Virus record (IMG/VR): IMGVR_UViG_3300012232_000048 | Span: 1-25,046 of that record | Reading direction: 5' to 3' (one strand) | Length of the DNA stretch: 25,046 nucleotides | From: a virus | Lineage: Duplodnaviria > Caudoviricetes | Part shown: in pieces, positions 1-23,355 of the stretch | Layout of the letters: the number at the start of each line of letters is the position of its first letter | How positions within the stretch are numbered: position 1 is the stretch's first letter | Position numbers and translations under genes: made by a program | Notes under the pieces: model-generated | Database searches by the model: none | Told to the model about the DNA's origin: nothing | What the model saw: only the letters and a program-made list of their open reading frames with translations

Positions 1-2377
1 AAGTGGAGAAGTCGATAGGACTAGAGAATTCCGCCTGAATCCTTGGAACGTAGTCGAATACTTTGCGCTCCGGGCAAAGGAATAAAAGTGCGTCGTGAGA
101 CTCACCAACTACGGGACAATCCCATATTTCCTTCTGTGCCCACAACATTACCATCTTGGTCTTATCTGTTACTGTCTGTTGAGGAATCCTTGAATAGGCA
201 GCTTTGAAAAGGTCGTCGCCCCATTCCTCATACAAATAGAAGGATGCGCCGTATGTTCCATGTAATCGTCTATTCTGTTGAATACAGTCTCTAATTCCCT
301 TTTGGAATACGGTCTGAATCTTAGGCGTCATCGCCTCTAATGCTTTAAGAATTTCCCCGGCTTTCCACTCCGAGATATTCAGTGGAATCTTATACTTTCG
401 CGCGTCGGTATTCATGTTAATCATCAACGCGCGTTTCTTAATCCCGAGATGGTATGCGTGGCGCGCCGTTTTCCCACAAAATCTCTCAGGCTTCTCATAC
501 CCTATTACCTTTTTCGAGTAATCTTCTTCTTTCCCACCGAATACTTTCGACGCCGTGAGTGCGTGGATATCGTTAGTATCGTAGAGTCTAAGCGTTTCTT
601 CATCGTCTGCAAGTAATGAGCATACTCTTGCTTCTGCTTGGGATTGATCAATGTTAATAAATACATAACCATCATCAGCAACAAGAATACTTCTGAGGTC
701 GTTGCCTGTATCTCCGTGCTTGGTAACGGTTTGTAAGGCCCACCCGATTTCCTTATTCCTGAGTGGAGATTTAACAACTTGTGTTGAAGTTCTAAAAGAT
801 TCTGTTCCAGTAATGAAATAGCTTGTGCGCATTCTTCCGTCATAGTCATTTTCTGCTGCAAGGTATGTCCCCAATGTTTTGTCAACTTTACGATGCTCTA
901 GGATAATGTCTAGCGCGCGAAGTTTACCCTTATCCTTAACTGTGTTAGCCATTAGCGCGGTCAGAATTTCCTCTCCAGTTCCGGCTCGCTTCGCTATTCC
1001 CATATCCTCATACAATAGCTTAGCGATTCTAACCGGACTTGCAATATTTATCAAATCCTCAGTGTAATTCAACGTAATCGACCTGAATTCTTTTTCCAGT
1101 TCGACCAGTCTCTTGACGTATTTCTCGATAAGCTGTTGACGTTTAACGTCGTCCGTTTTAAATCCAATAGACTCAACCCGATGATAAGCCTTGTGAAGTT
1201 TGGACCGGAAGTTTATGACTGCCTCAAGCGAGTGAGGAATCTGGGCGAGTTCCTCCAAATGTGCCAGAAAAATCTCAAGAGTGCAAGCTGCATCCTTACA
1301 GTTATAAAGAAGTAAATCTCTGATATTATCCTTTCCGGGCGAGTAGTCCCTTCCCTCGTCTTTATAATACGGTTCTCTGGTGTAAATACTGGTTTGGAAT
1401 CCGAGGGATTTGGGGAGTTCGGAACTGATGGACTGCCCTGAGATAAGGGTATCCATGTAAAGGCTATGGAAGTAGAAGCCCAAACGGTTAAGTTTATCTT
1501 CGTCATATTTGAAGTTCTGTCCGATGAACTTAATCGAACGGTCGAGGAAGAATCGGGAAAGAATCTGCCAGATGAAGGCTAAATCGGAGTCCGGAATTGT
1601 GCTAACCTGTAGAGTGTAGCCGTAGTCCTTCTTAGGTTTATTTGAAAACTCAGCAGAGATGTTAAGCGTATTCCAGAGTGGAATCGAAATGGCTTCTGAG
1701 GGATGGAATGAGAGTCCGATGCAGACGGGTATGTGTTCGATTGATTCAATATCGACTGCACAATATTCTCGTCCTTTATTTCTGTCCAGATACTTGAGCA
1801 GAGACGAAGAATCTGAAGCGATGTGGAGAAATCTATTAGGAAGGTCGAAGCCTGTAGTTTCACTCTCAGTGACGGCTCTCTTAACATCAAACTTTCTGAC
1901 ATACTTTTGCCACGCCCTAAAGGTTCCTTCGCCACTGCCATGTAATTCTGCTGCTGGATGCCACGTAAAGACGGATTTCCATCTTCCTAACGATGGGATT
2001 ATCGATCCCCTCCATTCACTTATTCCGTTCTTCTTTCCCCGTTTGCCGGTTAAAGCATAGAGGACGGGATCACCTAATCCTAGTATGCAATTAGGGTTTA
2101 TCGCTTCAATCTCCTCTTGTAATTCCTCAAGAGCAGGTTCAAGGGATAAGCCCATTTCTTGGTAGCGGGCGAATTCATTGTTCGGAAGTTGATATTTAAA
2201 AACATTCGTCCGATAGCAAGATTCGATGCTGATTCCTGCATCCCTCAAATCTTCCTTGAGAAGATGACCGGAGGGGCCAACAAAAGGTTTACCTACGATA
2301 ACTTCTTCCGCACCCGGCGCGATTCCGCATATCAATAGGTCTGGAGAATTCGGGCCGTAGCCCTCTACTTTTTTCAT
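1..2377 (-). CDS. polA: Family A DNA polymerase with N-terminal uracil-DNA glycosylase (family 4-like) domain and 3'-5' exonuclease; C-terminus runs off the left edge
   Basis: Manual translation from ATG at 2377 (SD GAGGGAGG): MKKVEGYGPNSPDLLICGIAPGAEE...GKPFVGPSG...TNVFKY...WHPAA (UDG motifs); ExoI AVDIES, ExoII GQNFKYD, ExoIII YNCKDA; Pol motif A DQSQAEAR, motif B RFCGKTARHAYHLG, motif C GESHDA. Absent from the ORF track, consistent with no stop codon in the window. Confidence 0.95.
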   Translation of the reverse strand, partial: MKKVEGYGPNSPDLLICGIAPGAEEVIVGKPFVGPSGHLLKEDLRDAGISIESCYRTNVFKYQLPNNEFARYQEMGLSLEPALEELQEEIEAINPNCILGLGDPVLYALTGKRGKKNGISEWRGSIIPSLGRWKSVFTWHPAAELHGSGEGTFRAWQKYVRKFDVKRAVTESETTGFDLPNRFLHIASDSSSLLKYLDRNKGREYCAVDIESIEHIPVCIGLSFHPSEAISIPLWNTLNISAEFSNKPKKDYGYTLQVSTIPDSDLAFIWQILSRFFLDRSIKFIGQNFKYDEDKLNRLGFYFHSLYMDTLISGQSISSELPKSLGFQTSIYTREPYYKDEGRDYSPGKDNIRDLLLYNCKDAACTLEIFLAHLEELAQIPHSLEAVINFRSKLHKAYHRVESIGFKTDDVKRQQLIEKYVKRLVELEKEFRSITLNYTEDLINIASPVRIAKLLYEDMGIAKRAGTGEEILTALMANTVKDKGKLRALDIILEHRKVDKTLGTYLAAENDYDGRMRTSYFITGTESFRTSTQVVKSPLRNKEIGWALQTVTKHGDTGNDLRSILVADDGYVFINIDQSQAEARVCSLLADDEETLRLYDTNDIHALTASKVFGGKEEDYSKKVIGYEKPERFCGKTARHAYHLGIKKRALMINMNTDARKYKIPLNISEWKAGEILKALEAMTPKIQTVFQKGIRDCIQQNRRLHGTYGASFYLYEEWGDDLFKAAYSRIPQQTVTDKTKMVMLWAQKEIWDCPVVGESHDALLFLCPERKVFDYVPRIQAEFSSPIDFST

Positions 2378-2610: not shown

Positions 2611-2856
2611 TTAGTTGCCTTCAGGAGTCTCGACTACAGAATCCGGGTCGTTGAACACTACTGCTTTGATTGCCCACATCGCAGTCTGTTCATTGTTGGT
2701 GAGCGCAATAGACTGTTGACGGGTAGGACGTCCGTCGAAGTCAACGCAGAGTTCACGGATTAATCTCTCGCCCTCAGAGAAGTGTTCACGAAGCTTGTTA
2801 ATCTTGTCCAACCCTTTAGGACTTGGCTTGTGATACGCGTAAGGTTTATCTATCAT
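2611..2856 (-). CDS. Acb2/Tad1-like helical-hairpin protein (putative cyclic-nucleotide sponge, anti-defence)
   Basis: 81 aa; YAYHKP...INKLRE...RQQSIALTNNEQTAMWAIKAV resembles the R-x-x-S/A-x-A-x-T-x-x-E/Q-x-A-x-M-W helix of the Acb2/Tad1 domain family. Confidence 0.65.
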   Translation of the reverse strand: MIDKPYAYHKPSPKGLDKINKLREHFSEGERLIRELCVDFDGRPTRQQSIALTNNEQTAMWAIKAVVFNDPDSVVETPEGN

Positions 2857-7812: not shown

Positions 7813-9822
7813 TTAAGCTGTTGCAGCCTTATTCCCGTATCGCTTCCTCAGGATAGCTTCTGCAAGTTCCTTAATCATATCTGATTCACTGAATTGAAGT
7901 TCTTCCTCACCGGGATTCATTCCCCTTCGGAAGTTAACTCTCTTACTTTCAACAATGTTAGTTAACAACTCATCAATTGTCCCTGCACAAATCATGTAGG
8001 GAACTCGAATTGAAACTTTCTTGGGTGTCCCATCTTTCTCGAACAGTGCTTCTTGGAGGTAGGGAGGTAAATCATTGAAGAACAAAGGACGGGAGAAACG
8101 TAATTCAGCCTGTTCCTCATTTGCAGCATTCCACTGACGTTCCATCATCGAAGCATTCTGACAGAACTGGAAGTTTAATCCTTCTCCTGACGCTAACGTG
8201 CTAGCAATCAGCAGACGATTCTTCACGTCAGTCTTAAATGCTTCTTCCTTTTTCGACCGGCTGTCAGGATCTTCTCCACCCTTTAACCTTAAAGCTGGAT
8301 TTAACCCTTGAGAGAGTAGCCAGGTATTCAGCTTATTCTCTAAATCGTCTCCCACATCGATGTGATGATGGAAGATTGTCAACTTCTGCCAGTCCTCAGT
8401 ATCTTCTAGGAACTCAATGGCATCCTCAACCTGAGCATCTACCTTAGCAAGGCCGGTAATATGCTTCAGCTTCATCATTTCAGCGGCCATTCCAGCAGTA
8501 TTCGTTGTTCCACCGCTGAGAACTAGATCCTTCAGAACGGCTGCTACTTTTCCTTCAGCCTTTTCGTATGCTTCTCCGTAAATATCTTCCAGTTCAACGT
8601 ATCTAACCTGACGATTGATCTTCGGTAGGTCGGGAAGAACGTCATCCCTCATACGTCGGATTACGAAGTCTTTGGTGAATTCTCGAAACTGAGCAATATT
8701 CCGGATTCCCCCTTCTTTCCATTTGCCGGAGGCTGAGTCATAATTAAAGTTTACCCACCTGTTCTGAAAGTGTTTGTAAGAGGGGAACCTCTCAGGCATC
8801 AGCATATTCAGGACTGAGAAGTATTCGCTTGCTCTGTTCTTCCACGGAGTTCCAGACAATCCGATAAAGAACTTGACGCTGTTCACGAGTTTCCGAACTT
8901 CCTGCGTTCTCGTTGAGTCCGGATTCTTAATGTGCTGAACCTCGTCGAAGATAATCGAGTTCAGCCCGAGAGCATCGAGTTTTTCTTGAGGGATTCTACG
9001 GAGGAGATCCATAGAAATGATGAACAGTTTGGTATTCGGCAGGGGGAAGAACTTGGAATGGCGGATAATCTGGGGGAGTCCAACCTTTTCAATCCCTAGC
9101 CAGTCCATATTCTCCTTCAATGCTTGCATTGTCAGAGTTTTCTTGGTAATCCAACCGCAAGGAAATGCTAGGTCGCCCCAATAATTCAGGAAGGAACAAG
9201 CCTGAGCCGTTTTCCCTAATCCCGGTTCGTCTGCGATGAGGCAACGACCGTTAGCGCGCCGGATAAACTCAGCCCCTTCAACCTGATATTTGAACAGTTT
9301 CTTACCTGATTTGGAGGTCCAGTCATTAAACCCGGCTACTCCTACCAGTTTATCCTGTGCAATCAGGTGTCCACATTCCAACTTTAGATACGTTTTGTCA
9401 CCAAAGTTGGCCCTACTTGTTTCAATAGCAGTCTTTCCACAAGTTGGACACTTCTTTGTGAGTGGTGGAATGTGAACTCGTTCCTTTTGTTCGGCTGGAC
9501 TCACTGCCCTACTCTCGTTCCGAAACATTAGACCGGTTACACTTGCTGTGCATCCGATTTCCTTTGCTTTGGCTTTCCATACGTCGTCATGTGCATGGTT
9601 TGGACCCACTAATGCGTGGGCTATCTCATGCAACATGGTATCAACGAACTGTTGTTCGTTTGTTGAGTTCAACATGACCGTGCTAATGGCGATAATCTTG
9701 TTCTGATACCAACACTGTCCAAGTTTCGTTGGACTCTTGTTGAATTCTATCTTCCATTCGGAAATGTTGTGCTCTCGAAGTAGCTTATTCCCTAACTCTA
9801 GAGCTTCGTGTTGTCTAATCAT
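7813..9822 (-). CDS. SprT-like metalloprotease + Zn ribbon + SNF2/SMARCAL1-like helicase fusion
   Basis: LGQC, TMLHEIAHAL, HDDVWK (SprT); CPTC...CGH; ADEPGLGKT, IFDEVQ, LSGTP, ASGEGLNF, QAELRFSR (SF2 motifs). Confidence 0.9.
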   Translation of the reverse strand: MIRQHEALELGNKLLREHNISEWKIEFNKSPTKLGQCWYQNKIIAISTVMLNSTNEQQFVDTMLHEIAHALVGPNHAHDDVWKAKAKEIGCTASVTGLMFRNESRAVSPAEQKERVHIPPLTKKCPTCGKTAIETSRANFGDKTYLKLECGHLIAQDKLVGVAGFNDWTSKSGKKLFKYQVEGAEFIRRANGRCLIADEPGLGKTAQACSFLNYWGDLAFPCGWITKKTLTMQALKENMDWLGIEKVGLPQIIRHSKFFPLPNTKLFIISMDLLRRIPQEKLDALGLNSIIFDEVQHIKNPDSTRTQEVRKLVNSVKFFIGLSGTPWKNRASEYFSVLNMLMPERFPSYKHFQNRWVNFNYDSASGKWKEGGIRNIAQFREFTKDFVIRRMRDDVLPDLPKINRQVRYVELEDIYGEAYEKAEGKVAAVLKDLVLSGGTTNTAGMAAEMMKLKHITGLAKVDAQVEDAIEFLEDTEDWQKLTIFHHHIDVGDDLENKLNTWLLSQGLNPALRLKGGEDPDSRSKKEEAFKTDVKNRLLIASTLASGEGLNFQFCQNASMMERQWNAANEEQAELRFSRPLFFNDLPPYLQEALFEKDGTPKKVSIRVPYMICAGTIDELLTNIVESKRVNFRRGMNPGEEELQFSESDMIKELAEAILRKRYGNKAATA

Positions 9823-14243: not shown

Positions 14244-14711
14244 TTACTTCTTAGCGCCAGCCAACAGAGCACGGACGGAAACTTCATCCATCCCGGTTGA
14301 CTTAACGAGATCCTTAACAGCCCGCTCGAATGCCTTGGTCTTATCTTCCTCAGTAACAGGCTTATACTGATTACGGATGGACTGGGACTTAGCGGAATAC
14401 GCGAGGGTTTCCTTCTTATCGTTGTAGAGTTCGATAAGAGAAGCGATAACCTTTCCCGCTGCCTCGCCCGGAAAAACTTCTCCGAGGAAGTTAATCTGGT
14501 CATCCGACAACGGGTGTCCCTCAGCAGCAAAGAGTTCTGCGAAGTTGGAAATCTTATACCACTCGTAAGGAATATCCCGACCCTCATACAGAGGATTACC
14601 GTTTTCATCCTTAACATTCAGGATGCCGATTTTGCCCACAACGAGCGTGCCAACAGGCGTTGGTTCGGTGGACGTTTCGGGGGTGGCGGGAATTTCGATG
14701 GGTTCGTTCAT
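14244..14711 (-). CDS. Hypothetical early protein (monocistronic)
   Basis: 155 aa; SD AAGGA; has its own promoter and terminator. Confidence 0.85.
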   Translation of the reverse strand: MNEPIEIPATPETSTEPTPVGTLVVGKIGILNVKDENGNPLYEGRDIPYEWYKISNFAELFAAEGHPLSDDQINFLGEVFPGEAAGKVIASLIELYNDKKETLAYSAKSQSIRNQYKPVTEEDKTKAFERAVKDLVKSTGMDEVSVRALLAGAKK

Positions 14712-18222: not shown

Positions 18223-18618
18223 TTACTGAATGGTGTCGGAGTATTCGAAGTCCGGCAGAATGGTGTCGAGAGCGGGACAGAATGTCGAGAAGAAATCTGC
18301 CTGTTTACCCGTGTTCTCAATGTCGGCGACACGCTTAGCAAGCTGGTCCCGTTCGACACGGTAAGGCGTCGTAACGACAAGGTGAACCTTGCCGCCGGTT
18401 CCCGGTTCAGGGAACAGCGACGCGATAGCCTCACGCACGTCGCCAGGCTGAACGCCGAATTGTCCAAGGTGGGCAACCAGCTTGTTCAGCGCGATGTTCT
18501 GTGCGCCCTTGGGAACCTCGGTCCGGTTCATGTAAATCTTGAGGCGGCCGGTTTTGCCATTCCGGTCGGCGACAGATTCCGCGAGAGAAGTGAGCCAGCG
18601 AGCAATGTTCTGAATCAT
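18223..18618 (-). CDS. Hypothetical early protein
   Basis: 131 aa; ATGA-coupled to the upstream gene and followed by a terminator. Confidence 0.7.
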   Translation of the reverse strand: MIQNIARWLTSLAESVADRNGKTGRLKIYMNRTEVPKGAQNIALNKLVAHLGQFGVQPGDVREAIASLFPEPGTGGKVHLVVTTPYRVERDQLAKRVADIENTGKQADFFSTFCPALDTILPDFEYSDTIQ

Positions 18619-18902
18619 GATTTTGTAACCTCTGGAACGTGGTGGAATGTCGGCAGGGCTGAGGATTCAGCCTCCCGAATGTAGGTCCGGTTGTTTGCAT
18701 CCTCATGCAAAACCGGGCCATCCGCGCGGATTATTGGAAACGCCTCACGGAGCTCACGCACTTCGATGTCGTAATACTGAGCGTGAGAACTTGCGACGGC
18801 AGATGCATACGCTTTGCAGTCTGCCTTGAGGCGCACAACGGAACCAGCTGACGCGCCCTTGCGCGAAACGCCGGTTTTCGAAACGGGACGGATTTTTGAC
18901 AC
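18615..18902 (-). CDS. Hypothetical early protein (first gene of the left arm)
   Basis: 95 aa; GTG start after SD GGGAG. Confidence 0.65.
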   Translation of the reverse strand: MSKIRPVSKTGVSRKGASAGSVVRLKADCKAYASAVASSHAQYYDIEVRELREAFPIIRADGPVLHEDANNRTYIREAESSALPTFHHVPEVTKS

Positions 18903-18993
18903 ACTTCTCCCTATCAGGTTATCAGCGGCAAATTCACGCTATCTTGGTTTTGGCTATCGCCGCGCCGAACGAACAAAATACAAGTATTGTAGT

Positions 18994-19365
18994 AGCATAC
19001 CAAGTGCCAAGGAAACGTGCAAAATCCTTAGTGTTTTCGCATGGTCGGCTGTGAGAGTCTACCGATTTTCAAACATTAGTCTGCTTTGTCTCATAAACCG
19101 TGACTAATTGTTAGTTGGTCCGCTTCTTGCATTAGCAAGGGGCGTGCCAAATCGCGCGTTTCAAACAGTTGTTTTATTTCTTGGCACGGATTATGCTATA
19201 GCAAGCCCCATGCCAAGTAATTCAAACGCGCGATTGAAACGAACATAATACGAAGGTGCATTGGCATAACACTTGCTTGTAAACTGCTAACTCCTTTGTT
19301 TGCAACAACTTACAGTCACCCCCATGTGCCATCATTTTGGGTCCCATGTTGGCACGATTTTTGCT
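18994..19365. promoter_or_regulatory. Cluster of seven sigma54 (RpoN) -24/-12 type elements in both orientations
   Basis: All have GG-N10-GC spacing. Minus: TTGGCACTTGGTATGCT (18994-19010), TTGGCACGCCCCTTGCT (19134-19150), TTGGCATGGGGCTTGCT (19200-19216). Plus: TTGGTCCGCTTCTTGCA (19115-19131), TTGGCACGGATTATGCT (19181-19197), TTGGCATAACACTTGCT (19261-19277), TTGGCACGATTTTTGCT (19349-19365). Confidence 0.85.
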
Positions 19366-19411
19366 GGCTCCACCTCACTCTTGGCCCTCTATTTTTCTCA
19401 TACGGATAAAG

Positions 19412-19594
19412 TTAGGGTCCCATATTCTCTTTATTCTTTTCCCTTATCCGAGGATTCTTCTTCATCCACGTATCAACCTGGCATTTACTACTGTGATACT
19501 TCTTAAGAGAGTTACTCGTCACGAACTCTTTACCGCAGCCTTCGCACTTCTTCGTGGCCGGTGTGATCAATTTGGTCAAAGAAGATTCTCCCAT
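19412..19594 (-). CDS. Small zinc-finger DNA-binding-like protein
   Basis: KKCEGCGKEF...KYHSSKC (C2-HC treble-clef-like pattern). Confidence 0.6.
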   Translation of the reverse strand: MGESSLTKLITPATKKCEGCGKEFVTSNSLKKYHSSKCQVDTWMKKNPRIREKNKENMGP

Positions 19595-19749
19595 TGCAAC
19601 GGTTCGTTTTAGGGCACGACCTGAGACACGTTTCGGCCCGTTTTCGTTGATTGTAGCACGATTGCAATGGCTCCGTCAACCTCTCCCCGGCCCCCGGCTC
19701 CGGCCCCGCTCCACCCCCAAGTAAGGCAAAATTCCCCAAAACTTTATCC

Positions 19750-19778
19750 TTGACTTCCCCCGTTCCTTCGTCTATAAT
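19750..19778 (+). promoter_or_regulatory. sigma70-type promoter for the packaging/late arm
   Basis: TTGACT (19750-19755), 17-nt spacer, TATAAT (19773-19778). Confidence 0.75.
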
Positions 19779-19851
19779 GCAAAAACTGGAAAAAACTACC
19801 TTGAGTGCCCGAGACTCAACTAACATTATTTCGTTTTGAAAAAGTTAAAAA

Positions 19852-20415
19852 ATGAGACTCTTAATTGACGACGACGACATTATCGAGATTCCCCTAATCC
19901 GTCGCCCGGAAGTTCCTGCTGATGTAAAAGAAGCAGAAATAGTTGTTCCAGCGAAGCTGGGCCGGCCAGGGGATAAAAAAGTTGACTCGTTAACTAAAGA
20001 ATTAATCGCAGTTCAATCCGCAGTAATGGGAGTTCCCCAAACTCAGCTCGCCAGAATTCACGGGACGAGTCAGGCAGAAGTCTCGATTAATAAGAACGGG
20101 AACGACAGGACTAACCGGGCGCAAAGGAAAGAGAACGAGAAGATTAGGGAAGTCATCAACCATGCGAAGTATCGGATAGCAGACCGGGCTACTGCTAAGT
20201 TGATGACCTCGCTTGATCTTTTTGACCCGGAACGTCTTGATCAAAAAGACTTGCCTAACGCTGCCAAATCAATGGCACACATTTTAGAGAAGGTAACGCA
20301 GGATTTTGAAGGTGCGTCAGTAAGTCAAGGACCCCAGTTTCATATTTACGCTCCACGAGCGCGCTCGGAAGAATCCTTCCAGGTAATCGACGTTAGGGAT
20401 AAAGAGACGGACTAG
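19852..20415 (+). CDS. Putative terminase small subunit (HTH)
   Basis: 187 aa; HTH-like GVPQTQLARIHGTSQAEVS; first gene of the arm that contains TerL. The TerS call is positional inference. Confidence 0.55.
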   Translation: MRLLIDDDDIIEIPLIRRPEVPADVKEAEIVVPAKLGRPGDKKVDSLTKELIAVQSAVMGVPQTQLARIHGTSQAEVSINKNGNDRTNRAQRKENEKIREVINHAKYRIADRATAKLMTSLDLFDPERLDQKDLPNAAKSMAHILEKVTQDFEGASVSQGPQFHIYAPRARSEESFQVIDVRDKETD

Positions 20416-21693: not shown

Positions 21694-23355
21694 ATGGCAA
21701 AAGAAATAGAACTACTTGAAAAGGATGCAGGCTGGCGTCCTAATGTCAAGCAGGAACCTTTTCTAGCCCTGCCTCTAACTATCAAGGAGGCATTCTATGG
21801 AGGAGGGGCGGGAAGTGGAAAATCAGACGTTCTTCTGTATTATCCACTTGTTTGGAAATGGCATGAACACCCGAGATTCAAGCAAGTGTTTATGCGTCGA
21901 ACATTTCCGGAGCTTAGGAATGAAATTGTCCCGCGCTCAAGAGAGATTTATCGAAGATTTGGCGCATCGTTCAATAAATCCGATATGGCTTGGACATTCC
22001 CTAGGCCAGATCAGGCAGGTGGAACTGGATTAGGAAATCAGGGGGCGATAATCTATCTTGGTCATTGTGAACATGAGGATGACGTTCACAAGTATGACTC
22101 GATGGAAATTAACCTTTTCTCCCCCGATGAGCTGACTTCCTTCACTCGATGGATCTATGAATACCTAGCCTTTCAACGTGTTAGGACCTCAGATAAAAGC
22201 TTACCGGCCATCATCAGGGCAGCCGGAATGCCAGGAAATATCGGACATGGTTGGGTTAAAAAGAGATTCATTGATCCAGCGCCCCGAGGAAGTAAGATTA
22301 TTATTGGAAAGGGTGGAATCAAGAGAATCTTCATCCACGCAACACAGGCCGATAATCCTCATATCGACCCGGAATACAAGAATTCCCTTTCAGCATTACC
22401 TGAAGCTGAAAAGAATGCGAAGTTATACGGATCGTTCGATGCCTATCTAGGCCAAGTATTCGAAGAATTCAGGGATAGAAGATATCCGGATGAACCTGAG
22501 AATGCACTGCATGTAATCAATTCATTCGATATTCCTGATTGGTGGCCCCGCCTTGTAGTCGGTGACTGGGGATTCGCAGCGATGACCTACGTGTTATTCG
22601 CAGCAATTGCACCAACTAAACGAGTTTACGTTTACCGGGAGCTAGCTTGGAGGCGGACGAAGATTGAGGAGTGGGCACCCGAAGTTAAGTATTACATTGA
22701 GAAAGAGAAGCCGCAGCGAATAGTTTTCTGTAAGTCGGTCGCGCAGGATAGGGGACAGGAGCATACGATCCTTCAACAGATTATGGATGCCCTTGAGTGT
22801 CCTGTTGATACGGCTAATCATTCTCCCGGCTCTAGAATCTCGGGTAAACAACTACTTCATGAATACCTTAGATTCACTCAGAAGGTAATACCAGAGAAGG
22901 ATCGAGTTGAATTCGATGAGCCGTATTCGCAGTGGATCTTAAGGAATAAAGGCGAAGCGGAATACAAGGCTTATCTCTCACTATTCGAAGAAGAAGAAAA
23001 GGAATCGAATCTTCCGAAACTTCAAATATTTAAAGAATGTGTATTACTAGTCACAGCAATTAAATCCTGCGTCTACGCAAAAGCGAAGGATGGGATACAG
23101 GCGGAAGATGTTGCAGAATTCGAAGATGATGATCCGTATGATACGGTAAGATACTTAGTAGACGCAGCAGATCAATACTTCGAGAATGCAACCGTTACTC
23201 TAGACATTATCGACAAAAGAGAAGCAGTAATTCAAAACTTTCAGAAACATCAGGATATGACAACTTTCTACATGCAGATGAAGAAGATTGAAAGTGATGT
23301 GAGACCCTTCGGCGTTTCTCGGTATCATCGTCGCGCTTCGCGCGCCAGGAATTAA
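21694..23355 (+). CDS. terL: Terminase large subunit
   Basis: PNVKQ (Q motif), Walker A GGGAGSGKS, RRTFPEL, Walker B FSPDELT, WVKKRFI, DNPH; RNase H-like VGDWG and DDPYDTVRY. Confidence 0.95.
   Translation: MAKEIELLEKDAGWRPNVKQEPFLALPLTIKEAFYGGGAGSGKSDVLLYYPLVWKWHEHPRFKQVFMRRTFPELRNEIVPRSREIYRRFGASFNKSDMAWTFPRPDQAGGTGLGNQGAIIYLGHCEHEDDVHKYDSMEINLFSPDELTSFTRWIYEYLAFQRVRTSDKSLPAIIRAAGMPGNIGHGWVKKRFIDPAPRGSKIIIGKGGIKRIFIHATQADNPHIDPEYKNSLSALPEAEKNAKLYGSFDAYLGQVFEEFRDRRYPDEPENALHVINSFDIPDWWPRLVVGDWGFAAMTYVLFAAIAPTKRVYVYRELAWRRTKIEEWAPEVKYYIEKEKPQRIVFCKSVAQDRGQEHTILQQIMDALECPVDTANHSPGSRISGKQLLHEYLRFTQKVIPEKDRVEFDEPYSQWILRNKGEAEYKAYLSLFEEEEKESNLPKLQIFKECVLLVTAIKSCVYAKAKDGIQAEDVAEFEDDDPYDTVRYLVDAADQYFENATVTLDIIDKREAVIQNFQKHQDMTTFYMQMKKIESDVRPFGVSRYHRRASRARN

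Follow-up and report, generated by a model that had tools for sequence, protein, structure and literature searches.

A cluster of seven sigma-54-type sites ahead of the terminase genes of a phage is read here, with slightly better than even confidence, as a control module for host sigma-54 (RpoN), in which the outermost site (S1) acts as a promoter and the inner sites load extra polymerase. The window analysed is the entire 25,046-base record, a phage fragment that represents about half a genome. To our knowledge, sigma-54 is regarded as a bacterial system that depends on a dedicated activator, and it hardly figures in what has been described of phage biology. If the proposed reading is true, a large uncultured phage family starts infection on a host signal, without a detectable integrase or activator gene of its own. 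Close-packed arrays of such sites are estimated to occur in several hundred viral contigs and follow strict spacing rules unseen in bacterial genomes. They offer a test bed for closed-complex co-occupancy, bidirectional firing, repression and titration, as well as a sequence signature to predict rpoN-positive hosts.

Sigma-54-type sites and neighbouring elements of the window

All seven 17-mers reported by the sequence-only reading were confirmed in position and strand. S1 (18994..19010, minus strand) is followed by S2 (19115..19131, plus), which has the weakest -24 box of the seven, S3 (19134..19150, minus), S4 (19181..19197, plus), S5 (19200..19216, minus), S6 (19261..19277, plus) and S7 (19349..19365, plus), the site with the top score. 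S2 faces S3 and S4 faces S5 head-to-head, each at a gap of 2, and both pairs and their 66-bp offset were as described. Measured against the published consensus TGGCAC-N5-7-TTGCT (PMC12316311), S1-S7 agree at 4-6 of the 6 positions of TGGCAC and at 4-5 of the 5 positions of TTGCW. The -24 TGGCAC and -12 TTGC boxes of an enhancer-dependent sigma-54 promoter are thus present at a fixed spacing, as the earlier claim of exact spacing had it: N7 separates TGGYM from TGC in 7/7 window sites, no other spacing occurs, and the host sigma-54 consensus is followed. The same spacing was found in relatives, where variable spacing had been named as a sign against sigma-54 (N7 in 6/8 sites of L002, 5/5 of L034 and 4/4 of L029).

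Within 18903-19851 the pattern TTGG-N9-TGCW was counted 7 times, and the remaining window contains none; in 2000 dinucleotide shuffles the mean was 0.095 and the highest count 2, with 0/2000 reaching 7. The density check against shuffled and other sequence therefore came out in favour of the array. The bare GG-N10-GC count discriminates weakly (13 versus a mean of 6.3; reached by 15/2000 shuffles). Strain X7 differs from the window by 20 substitutions and 2 indels in 801 bp, only 1 of them within a site, whose consensus is retained; about 3 changes would be expected inside sites by chance, so that this single hit is not evidence by itself.

The left arm of the window is encoded on the minus strand and comprises a UDG-PolA gene (read from its translation), a Sak4-like protein, a PD-(D/E)XK nuclease, an SNF2 helicase and many small ORFs. 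The right arm, on the plus strand, holds the putative terminase small subunit gene terS (19852..20415), a gene for a LamG protein and the terminase large subunit gene terL (21694..23355). The terS assignment is based on position and conservation in the family, a profile HMM search with this gene having returned no match. Two further proteins of the left arm deserve mention. A protein with an Acb2/Tad1 hairpin domain (2611-2856, minus strand; Pfam E 6e-11) is likely an anti-defence nucleotide sponge, and the product of 7813-9822 (minus strand) carries an N-terminal SprT-like metalloprotease domain fused to the SNF2 helicase.

The array had been placed at the strand switch of the phage, and this did not hold. 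A zinc-finger-like small ORF on the minus strand (19412..19594), conserved with 73% identity to L002 and 54% to G002, lies to the right of the array together with its own sigma-70 promoter, and sigma-70 transcription hence diverges at about 19680-19750. Comparison of this ORF with L565 placed 21/42 differences at third codon positions. The leftward sigma-70 promoter (19650..19679, minus strand; TTGACG-18-TACAAT with an extended -10) would send its transcript into the array. The rightward sigma-70 promoter (19750..19778, plus strand; match of 11/12) lies ahead of terS and is conserved in L002.

Such surroundings bring repression into consideration: bound sigma-54 polymerase could cover activator sites and block read-through from 19679, or S7 could act antisense into the upstream gene. 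In line with this, the array is located downstream of the leftward sigma-70 promoter, and no terminator-like site was found between that promoter and the array. S7 is directed rightward, towards terS, and first meets the zinc-finger-like ORF at its 3' end, head-on to the stop; a plus site in L004/L005 also abuts the end of a minus-strand gene. Sigma-54 is described to repress overlapping promoters (PMC4591121), and CtrA represses via a comparable gap array in phage Delta (PMC9437464). We nevertheless regard repression as improbable, given that single intragenic sigma-54 sites had no roadblock effect in E. coli (PMC4591121), that the array of the distant relative G003 is present without an upstream minus-strand ORF, and that 13 single-strand loci exhibited no antisense bias (41 sense, 37 antisense).

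Several further elements accompany the sites. The palindrome TTCAAAC-N4-GATTGAA (19221..19238), perfect in L002, is a candidate activator site (UAS) or repressor site, and an inverted related copy lies at 19150-19171; the candidate UAS varies from lineage to lineage. An IHF-like box (19288..19312) is positioned 36 bp upstream of S7 and, compared with the IHF consensus WATCARXXXXTTR (PMC2709558), has 2 mismatches in the window, a level at which many chance matches are equally good, 1 in strains X7/X9 and 0 in L002. A GGGTCCC motif (19339..19345, plus strand) adjoins S7, with a second copy at 19415-19421.

Two other repeats were observed in the same region. A GAAC-N7-GAAG element (19241-19255) overlaps a weak sigma-70 site (19221-19249) and takes the perfect form GAAC-N7-GAAC in L002/L003, which we take to resemble the alphaproteobacterial or acidobacterial LexA box and which may presumably represent an SOS input and a clue to the host. 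A 12-bp palindrome, a candidate operator, is present in two copies, one at the start of the zinc-finger-like ORF (19591-19602) and one in the spacer of the leftward sigma-70 promoter (19659-19670); L565 carries its perfect form once, CCATTGCAATGG.

The phage family and the probable promoter of the early genes

The terL protein was used as the anchor for family comparisons and belongs to a large family, with 1928 relatives at E<=1e-60 among 8000 scored. Runs from freshwater sediment, soil and groundwater contain DNA near-identical to the window. No close cultured member was found, the best terL identity to cultured phages being <=32% among the matches listed, and BLAST of the array DNA against cultured phages, a method insensitive to such motifs, yielded chance-level matches only. 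A host search by terL gave 0 matches in 401 genomes of one phylum, and an integrase was searched in relatives G001-G004 and not found. The contigs of many relatives stop near the array region; G002-G004 assemble as circles that are broken elsewhere, and hence we make no claim of a genome terminus at the array.

The conservation of the locus was assessed in 63 dereplicated members, obtained from 197 loci; terS was detectable in 129 of these, with 1.5 kb or more of sequence upstream of terS in 91. Viral pairs supplied the site matrix, which was relaxed at two positions, and with it 77 sites were detected in the 124 kb upstream of terS and 20 in the remaining 743 kb, an about 23-fold enrichment just upstream of the terminase genes; the reversed-matrix control gave 18 matches in 867 kb. 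The clustering and conservation at this locus that the sequence-only reading had proposed to look for in related phages were thereby substantiated. No site was found in 22 members, one in 24 and two to seven in 17 (41/63 with at least one). As 22/63 members lack a site at this threshold, the module appears dispensable or replaceable.

In a common layout of the family, a minus site and a plus site are separated by 200-330 bp that contain IHF boxes and palindromes, which corresponds to the classic architecture of enhancer-dependent promoters (leftward site, IHF boxes and palindromes, rightward site). The window contains this divergent core (S1 and S7) and, in addition, the five inner sites. The exact IHF consensus was present in 18/41 members with sites and in 3/22 without (p=0.024), several times at 37-48 bp upstream of a site. 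Among palindromes found de novo, TGCA-N6-TGCA (13/33) and GACA-N5-TGTC (8/33) were enriched upstream of the early site. The suggestion that the whole array is a decoy is not supported, since the conserved core of the family consists of a pair of divergent promoters accompanied by IHF boxes and palindromes.

Comparison with close relatives revealed turnover of sites, with their number staying near seven. L002 and L003 (terL 97%) retain the S2/S3 pair, which aligns with their own, as well as S7 in the same form, the palindromes and the IHF-like box. S4 is missing from both (a 22-bp alignment gap), the -12 boxes of S5 and S6 are degenerate, and other sites lie farther left. In the distant relative G003 (PolA 39%), a leftward site precedes the first early gene by about 50 nt, and the layout further includes an exact IHF box and a gap-2 pair as well as GGGTCCC with a site almost the same as S7.

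S1 is the likely promoter of the first early gene, with a predicted start at about 18983. A ribosome-binding site and a GTG start are found 91 nt beyond the site, and the two ORFs behind it are located at 18615..18902 (minus strand; 95 aa, 39% to L002 over 76 aa) and 18223..18618 (minus strand; 131 aa, 69% to L002). Equivalents of S1 stand 47-74 nt ahead of the first leftward gene in L002, L034, L040 and L028, so that placement in sense shortly ahead of a gene start is shared by S1 and its family equivalents. A ribosome-binding site and ORF followed at 35-95 nt downstream of 14/52 minus sites and of 98/1260 random positions (p=5e-5). None of the plus sites (0/33) had an ORF at this distance, and terS has a sigma-70 promoter of its own; thus, the plus sites are not ordinary gene promoters.

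A test anchored on one conserved early gene, identifiable in 31/63 members, points in the same direction. A sense site occurred within 300 bp of this gene in 21/31 members. In the 9 members with the site 45-79 nt upstream, 0 had a sigma-70 consensus, compared with 8/12 of the members with the site 120-275 nt upstream (p=0.005); since about 7/9 of the near members look like one subclade, independence is limited and the p-values overstate it. Of the remaining anchored members, 4 had a sigma-70 consensus alone and 6 neither. The earlier suggestion that the outermost site could be a real promoter is therefore supported as likely, chiefly on the strength of this anchored test, with sense sites in 21/31 relatives and no sigma-70 promoter beside the nine closest.

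The counterpart of the anchor gene in the window (14244..14711, minus strand) lies far downstream and has its own sigma-70 promoter; in most relatives it is found directly behind the sigma-54 site, as the first gene. The predicted fold of the protein from a relative comprises a beta-hairpin and helices (pLDDT 84). A fold search returned nothing informative (best Z 5.1), with no viral match at E<=0.001, and atlas searches added no information.

Proposed mechanism and comparison with known systems

Closed complexes of sigma-54 are stable, and their opening requires an AAA+ activator that binds some 100-150 bp upstream; both this activator and region I act just downstream of the -12 box (PMC7057263). 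In a host assumed to carry rpoN, the sigma-54 holoenzyme would occupy the phage sites as stable closed complexes. A host AAA+ enhancer-binding protein, bound to the palindromes and helped by an IHF bend, would open S1, and early transcription would begin only when the host signal is on, an arrangement analogous, with sigma-54 in place of CtrA, to the CtrA-gated 'lytic deferment' arrays. In the step of which we are least confident, the gap-2 head-to-head pairs together with S6 and S7 may load additional holoenzyme. Each pair could serve as a bidirectional promoter that fires either way, its two starts separated by 19 bp; pairs that stay closed might keep polymerase on the phage DNA and damp both activation and read-through from the leftward sigma-70 promoter. 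Of the earlier ideas, a parking role of the inner sites and a link of the phage to the state of its host remain plausible.

The activator is proposed to come from the host. As previously noted, no activator was found in the window, and the search for an RpoN-box or enhancer-binding protein gene beyond it gave 0 matches over the cut-off to PF04552 (sigma-54 DNA-binding domain) or PF00158 (activator) in 47 array-bearing viral records, 14 of which are at least 90% complete and in which control profiles were detected. A Pfam match to Sigma54_AID (E 0.0096) in the ORF at 505-885 (minus strand) was rejected, as this ORF is an alternative frame within the UDG-PolA gene.

With the transcription start set at 19 bp from the motif centre (PMC4591121), the pairs have predicted starts at 19142(+)/19123(-) and 19208(+)/19189(-), 19 bp apart, each of which falls at the centre of the partner site. 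The pairs had been described as convergent; the sites do face each other, yet the predicted transcripts diverge. Their predicted start spacing, derived from geometry, would resemble that of sigma-70 bidirectional promoters, in which overlapping opposite-strand elements are reported to give divergent starts within a range of 7-25 bp, with a spacing of 18-19 bp (bioRxiv 10.1101/2020.01.31.928960). Unlike these, the phage pairs consist of sigma-54 elements and require an enhancer protein for activation.

The bacterial enhancer-dependent promoters nifH and glnAp2, with their IHF-assisted looping (PMC7057263, PMC2709558, PMC4591121), share with the phage array the -24/-12 consensus and spacing and, in many relatives, a divergent pair around a central region. 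Such promoters often have an IHF site between the promoter and the upstream activator sequence, for which the IHF-like box and the palindromes of the phage are candidates. In contrast to these promoters, the array is phage-borne, comes with no detected activator gene and has five extra sites where activator sites normally lie.

Another likeness is provided by the arrays of CtrA sites that alphaproteobacterial phages carry in their gap regions or in terminal repeats (Mascolo et al. 2022, PMC9437464). As far as that text describes them, both types combine dense, high-scoring sites for a host regulator with a position in a long intergenic stretch that separates divergent modules close to the terminase, both recur in unrelated phages, and for both a tie of infection to the state of the host is proposed. 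The features of intergenic concentration, high scores and recurrence in unrelated phages are all found here, whereas the regulator is not CtrA of an alphaproteobacterial host, the motif being the sigma-54 consensus; the array would work alike without belonging to that class. Unlike CtrA, the host factor belongs to the sigma factors, arrives with polymerase and requires an AAA+ activator, and the sites are directional, have a fixed mutual spacing and are known from sequence alone.

Promoter P015 of Pseudomonas phage YuA (bioRxiv 10.1101/2023.10.13.562163) is a precedent for a sigma-54-type promoter in a phage; the passage concerned names one promoter and describes no array or paired sites. In the literature searched, paywalled journals and the first YuA paper excepted, no description of sigma-54 site arrays in phages was found. 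The new elements of the present work are the family-wide anchor test for promoter function, the co-occurrence with IHF boxes and the spacing rule for three orientations.

Spacing of neighbouring sites in viral and bacterial genomes

A scan of IMG/VR for head-to-head pairs at gaps of 0-20, covering 12/64 parts, led to an estimate of about 660 stretches. Among the matches listed, 135 distinct head-to-head pairs were present, 100 of them with gaps of 2-5. In 200 half-sites from unrelated viruses, the positions not required by the search followed the consensus (A 172, Y 178, R 173, T 120), and the genes next to the arrays belong to several unrelated phage groups. Pairs with a wider gap often have centres rich in G/C (0.62-0.66 at gaps 4-5), which sets them apart from the sigma-70 bidirectional promoters. 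Since the head-to-head pairs of the array were detected as inverted repeats and the minus-strand RNA folds with z=-2.0, the pairs could be hairpins, cruciforms or structured RNA with an incidental match to the consensus. This explanation was rejected as highly improbable: complementarity at the free positions of 100 viral pairs was 0.27 versus 0.29 in shuffled partners, tandem copies are as frequent as inverted ones, and an Rfam search gave no match.

The tight spacing of head-to-head sites is specific to viruses. In a GTDB scan covering 43/64 parts (about 180 stretches estimated) with the identical stricter pattern, gaps of 2-5 accounted for 18/113 of the listed pairs compared with 82/103 of the viral ones; the GTDB gap distribution was flat among the matches listed, so that gap 2-5 pairs, unlike in the phages, are not enriched there. 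Tail-to-tail (about 350 estimated) and tandem neighbours (about 1400 estimated) also occur in viruses, with peaks at gaps 5-8 and 9-12. After clustering at 80%, with only those scans counted that did not select the class, 25/31 head-to-head clusters fell at gaps 1-5 and 21/37 tail-to-tail clusters at 3-8, and the 62 tandem clusters were distributed as 0 at gaps 1-7, 19 at 8-13, 0 at 14-17 and 16 at 18-24. A linear footprint fails to explain the spacing minima. The spacings agree with a placement of neighbours on roughly opposite faces of the helix (mean phases 9.75+2.12 versus 2x5.77 bp, within 0.3 bp). Past the first peak the periodicity is weak, at p=0.047 for tandem neighbours and without significance in the two remaining classes, so that a long-range 10.5-bp periodicity is not established.

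The fixed spacings of tail-to-tail and tandem neighbours suggest that neighbouring sites are co-occupied by holoenzyme. For gap-2 pairs such co-occupancy may clash, because sigma-54 region I contacts DNA just downstream of the -12 box (PMC7057263) and both contacts would fall on the same shared central bases.

Instead of sigma-54, a phage protein (a regulator, the terminase small subunit or a replication factor) could bind the sites with a specificity resembling that of sigma-54. The location next to terS and the GGGTCCC motifs, which are possibly packaging-related, would suit a region used for packaging or as an origin. A constant gap in head-to-head pairs, seen as a gap-2 partner in 6/31 plus sites, would suit a dimeric binder. 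The gap, though, ranges from 1 to 5, and all three orientations are found. GGGTCCC recurs upstream of terS throughout the family, in members free of sigma-54 sites as well, and is thus a feature separate from the sites. The full 17-bp consensus recurs in unrelated phage groups, with neighbour genes of separate families, and the 47 array-bearing records contain no RpoN-type gene and no PF04552 or PF00158 match over the cut-off. A phage protein of RpoN-like specificity, which had been offered earlier, thus gains no support, although a remote mimic is conceivable, and we judge a phage binder of any of these kinds to be very unlikely.

Alternatively, the array may be mainly a sponge, whose close-packed sites would trap sigma-54 holoenzyme in non-activatable closed complexes, with host sigma-54 responses falling after amplification of the phage DNA. 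The tight viral head-to-head gaps, the avoidance of gaps 1-7 and 14-17 by tandem neighbours and their pile-up at 8-13, the tail-to-tail peak at 3-8 and the range of 0 to 7 sites across the family, with turnover, fit such trapping, and some arrays, with 10 sites in less than 300 bp or 29 in 1.5 kb, have too many for promoters. On the other hand, the conserved core is promoter-like, the helical periodicity beyond the first peak is weak, and the seven sites of one incoming genome would face competition from 135 or more sites on the E. coli chromosome (PMC4591121), so that titration would be workable only after replication. We consider the sponge unlikely as the main role of the array. A related idea, which we hold equally tentatively, concerns the lattices in many unrelated phages: neighbours on roughly opposite faces might block each other's activator docking and lock closed complexes, giving a protein-free trap for host sigma-54 polymerase that would shut down sigma-54 stress responses once the phage has replicated and supply a single live promoter at its flank.

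Arrays of different size and geometry were encountered elsewhere. The outermost sites of 29 general arrays, a selection-biased sample, were directed inward in 38 cases and outward in 15, which counts against the reading as a promoter module. Very long viral arrays include L121:2472-3976, with 29 mostly alternating sites in 1.5 kb, L089, with 24 in 6 kb, and L044:2924-3242, with 12 sites in 319 bp. The densest lattice seen, L457:31-305, has about 10 alternating sites in 275 bp on a 1351-bp contig of a Gemmatimonadaceae bin. GTDB matches with gaps of 9-10 (L421, L427, L428, L442, L443, L486, L488 and L495) comprise several perfect inverted repeats, and their sigma-54-like 17-mers, repeated within Treponemataceae and Oscillospiraceae genomes, are probably mobile-element ends or hairpins. 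L558 (G050:C75 294-314 kb) belongs to a 383-kb contig from a Chitinophagales bin, probably a jumbo phage, and bears dozens of strict sigma-54 sites, almost all of them on the same strand, that are stacked ahead of small ORFs and followed by a shared GATCGCATCT motif. On this contig, sense sites precede several small genes by 38-47 nt, with extra sites upstream in steps of 26-28 and 55 bp, a pattern of a promoter with phased extra sites.
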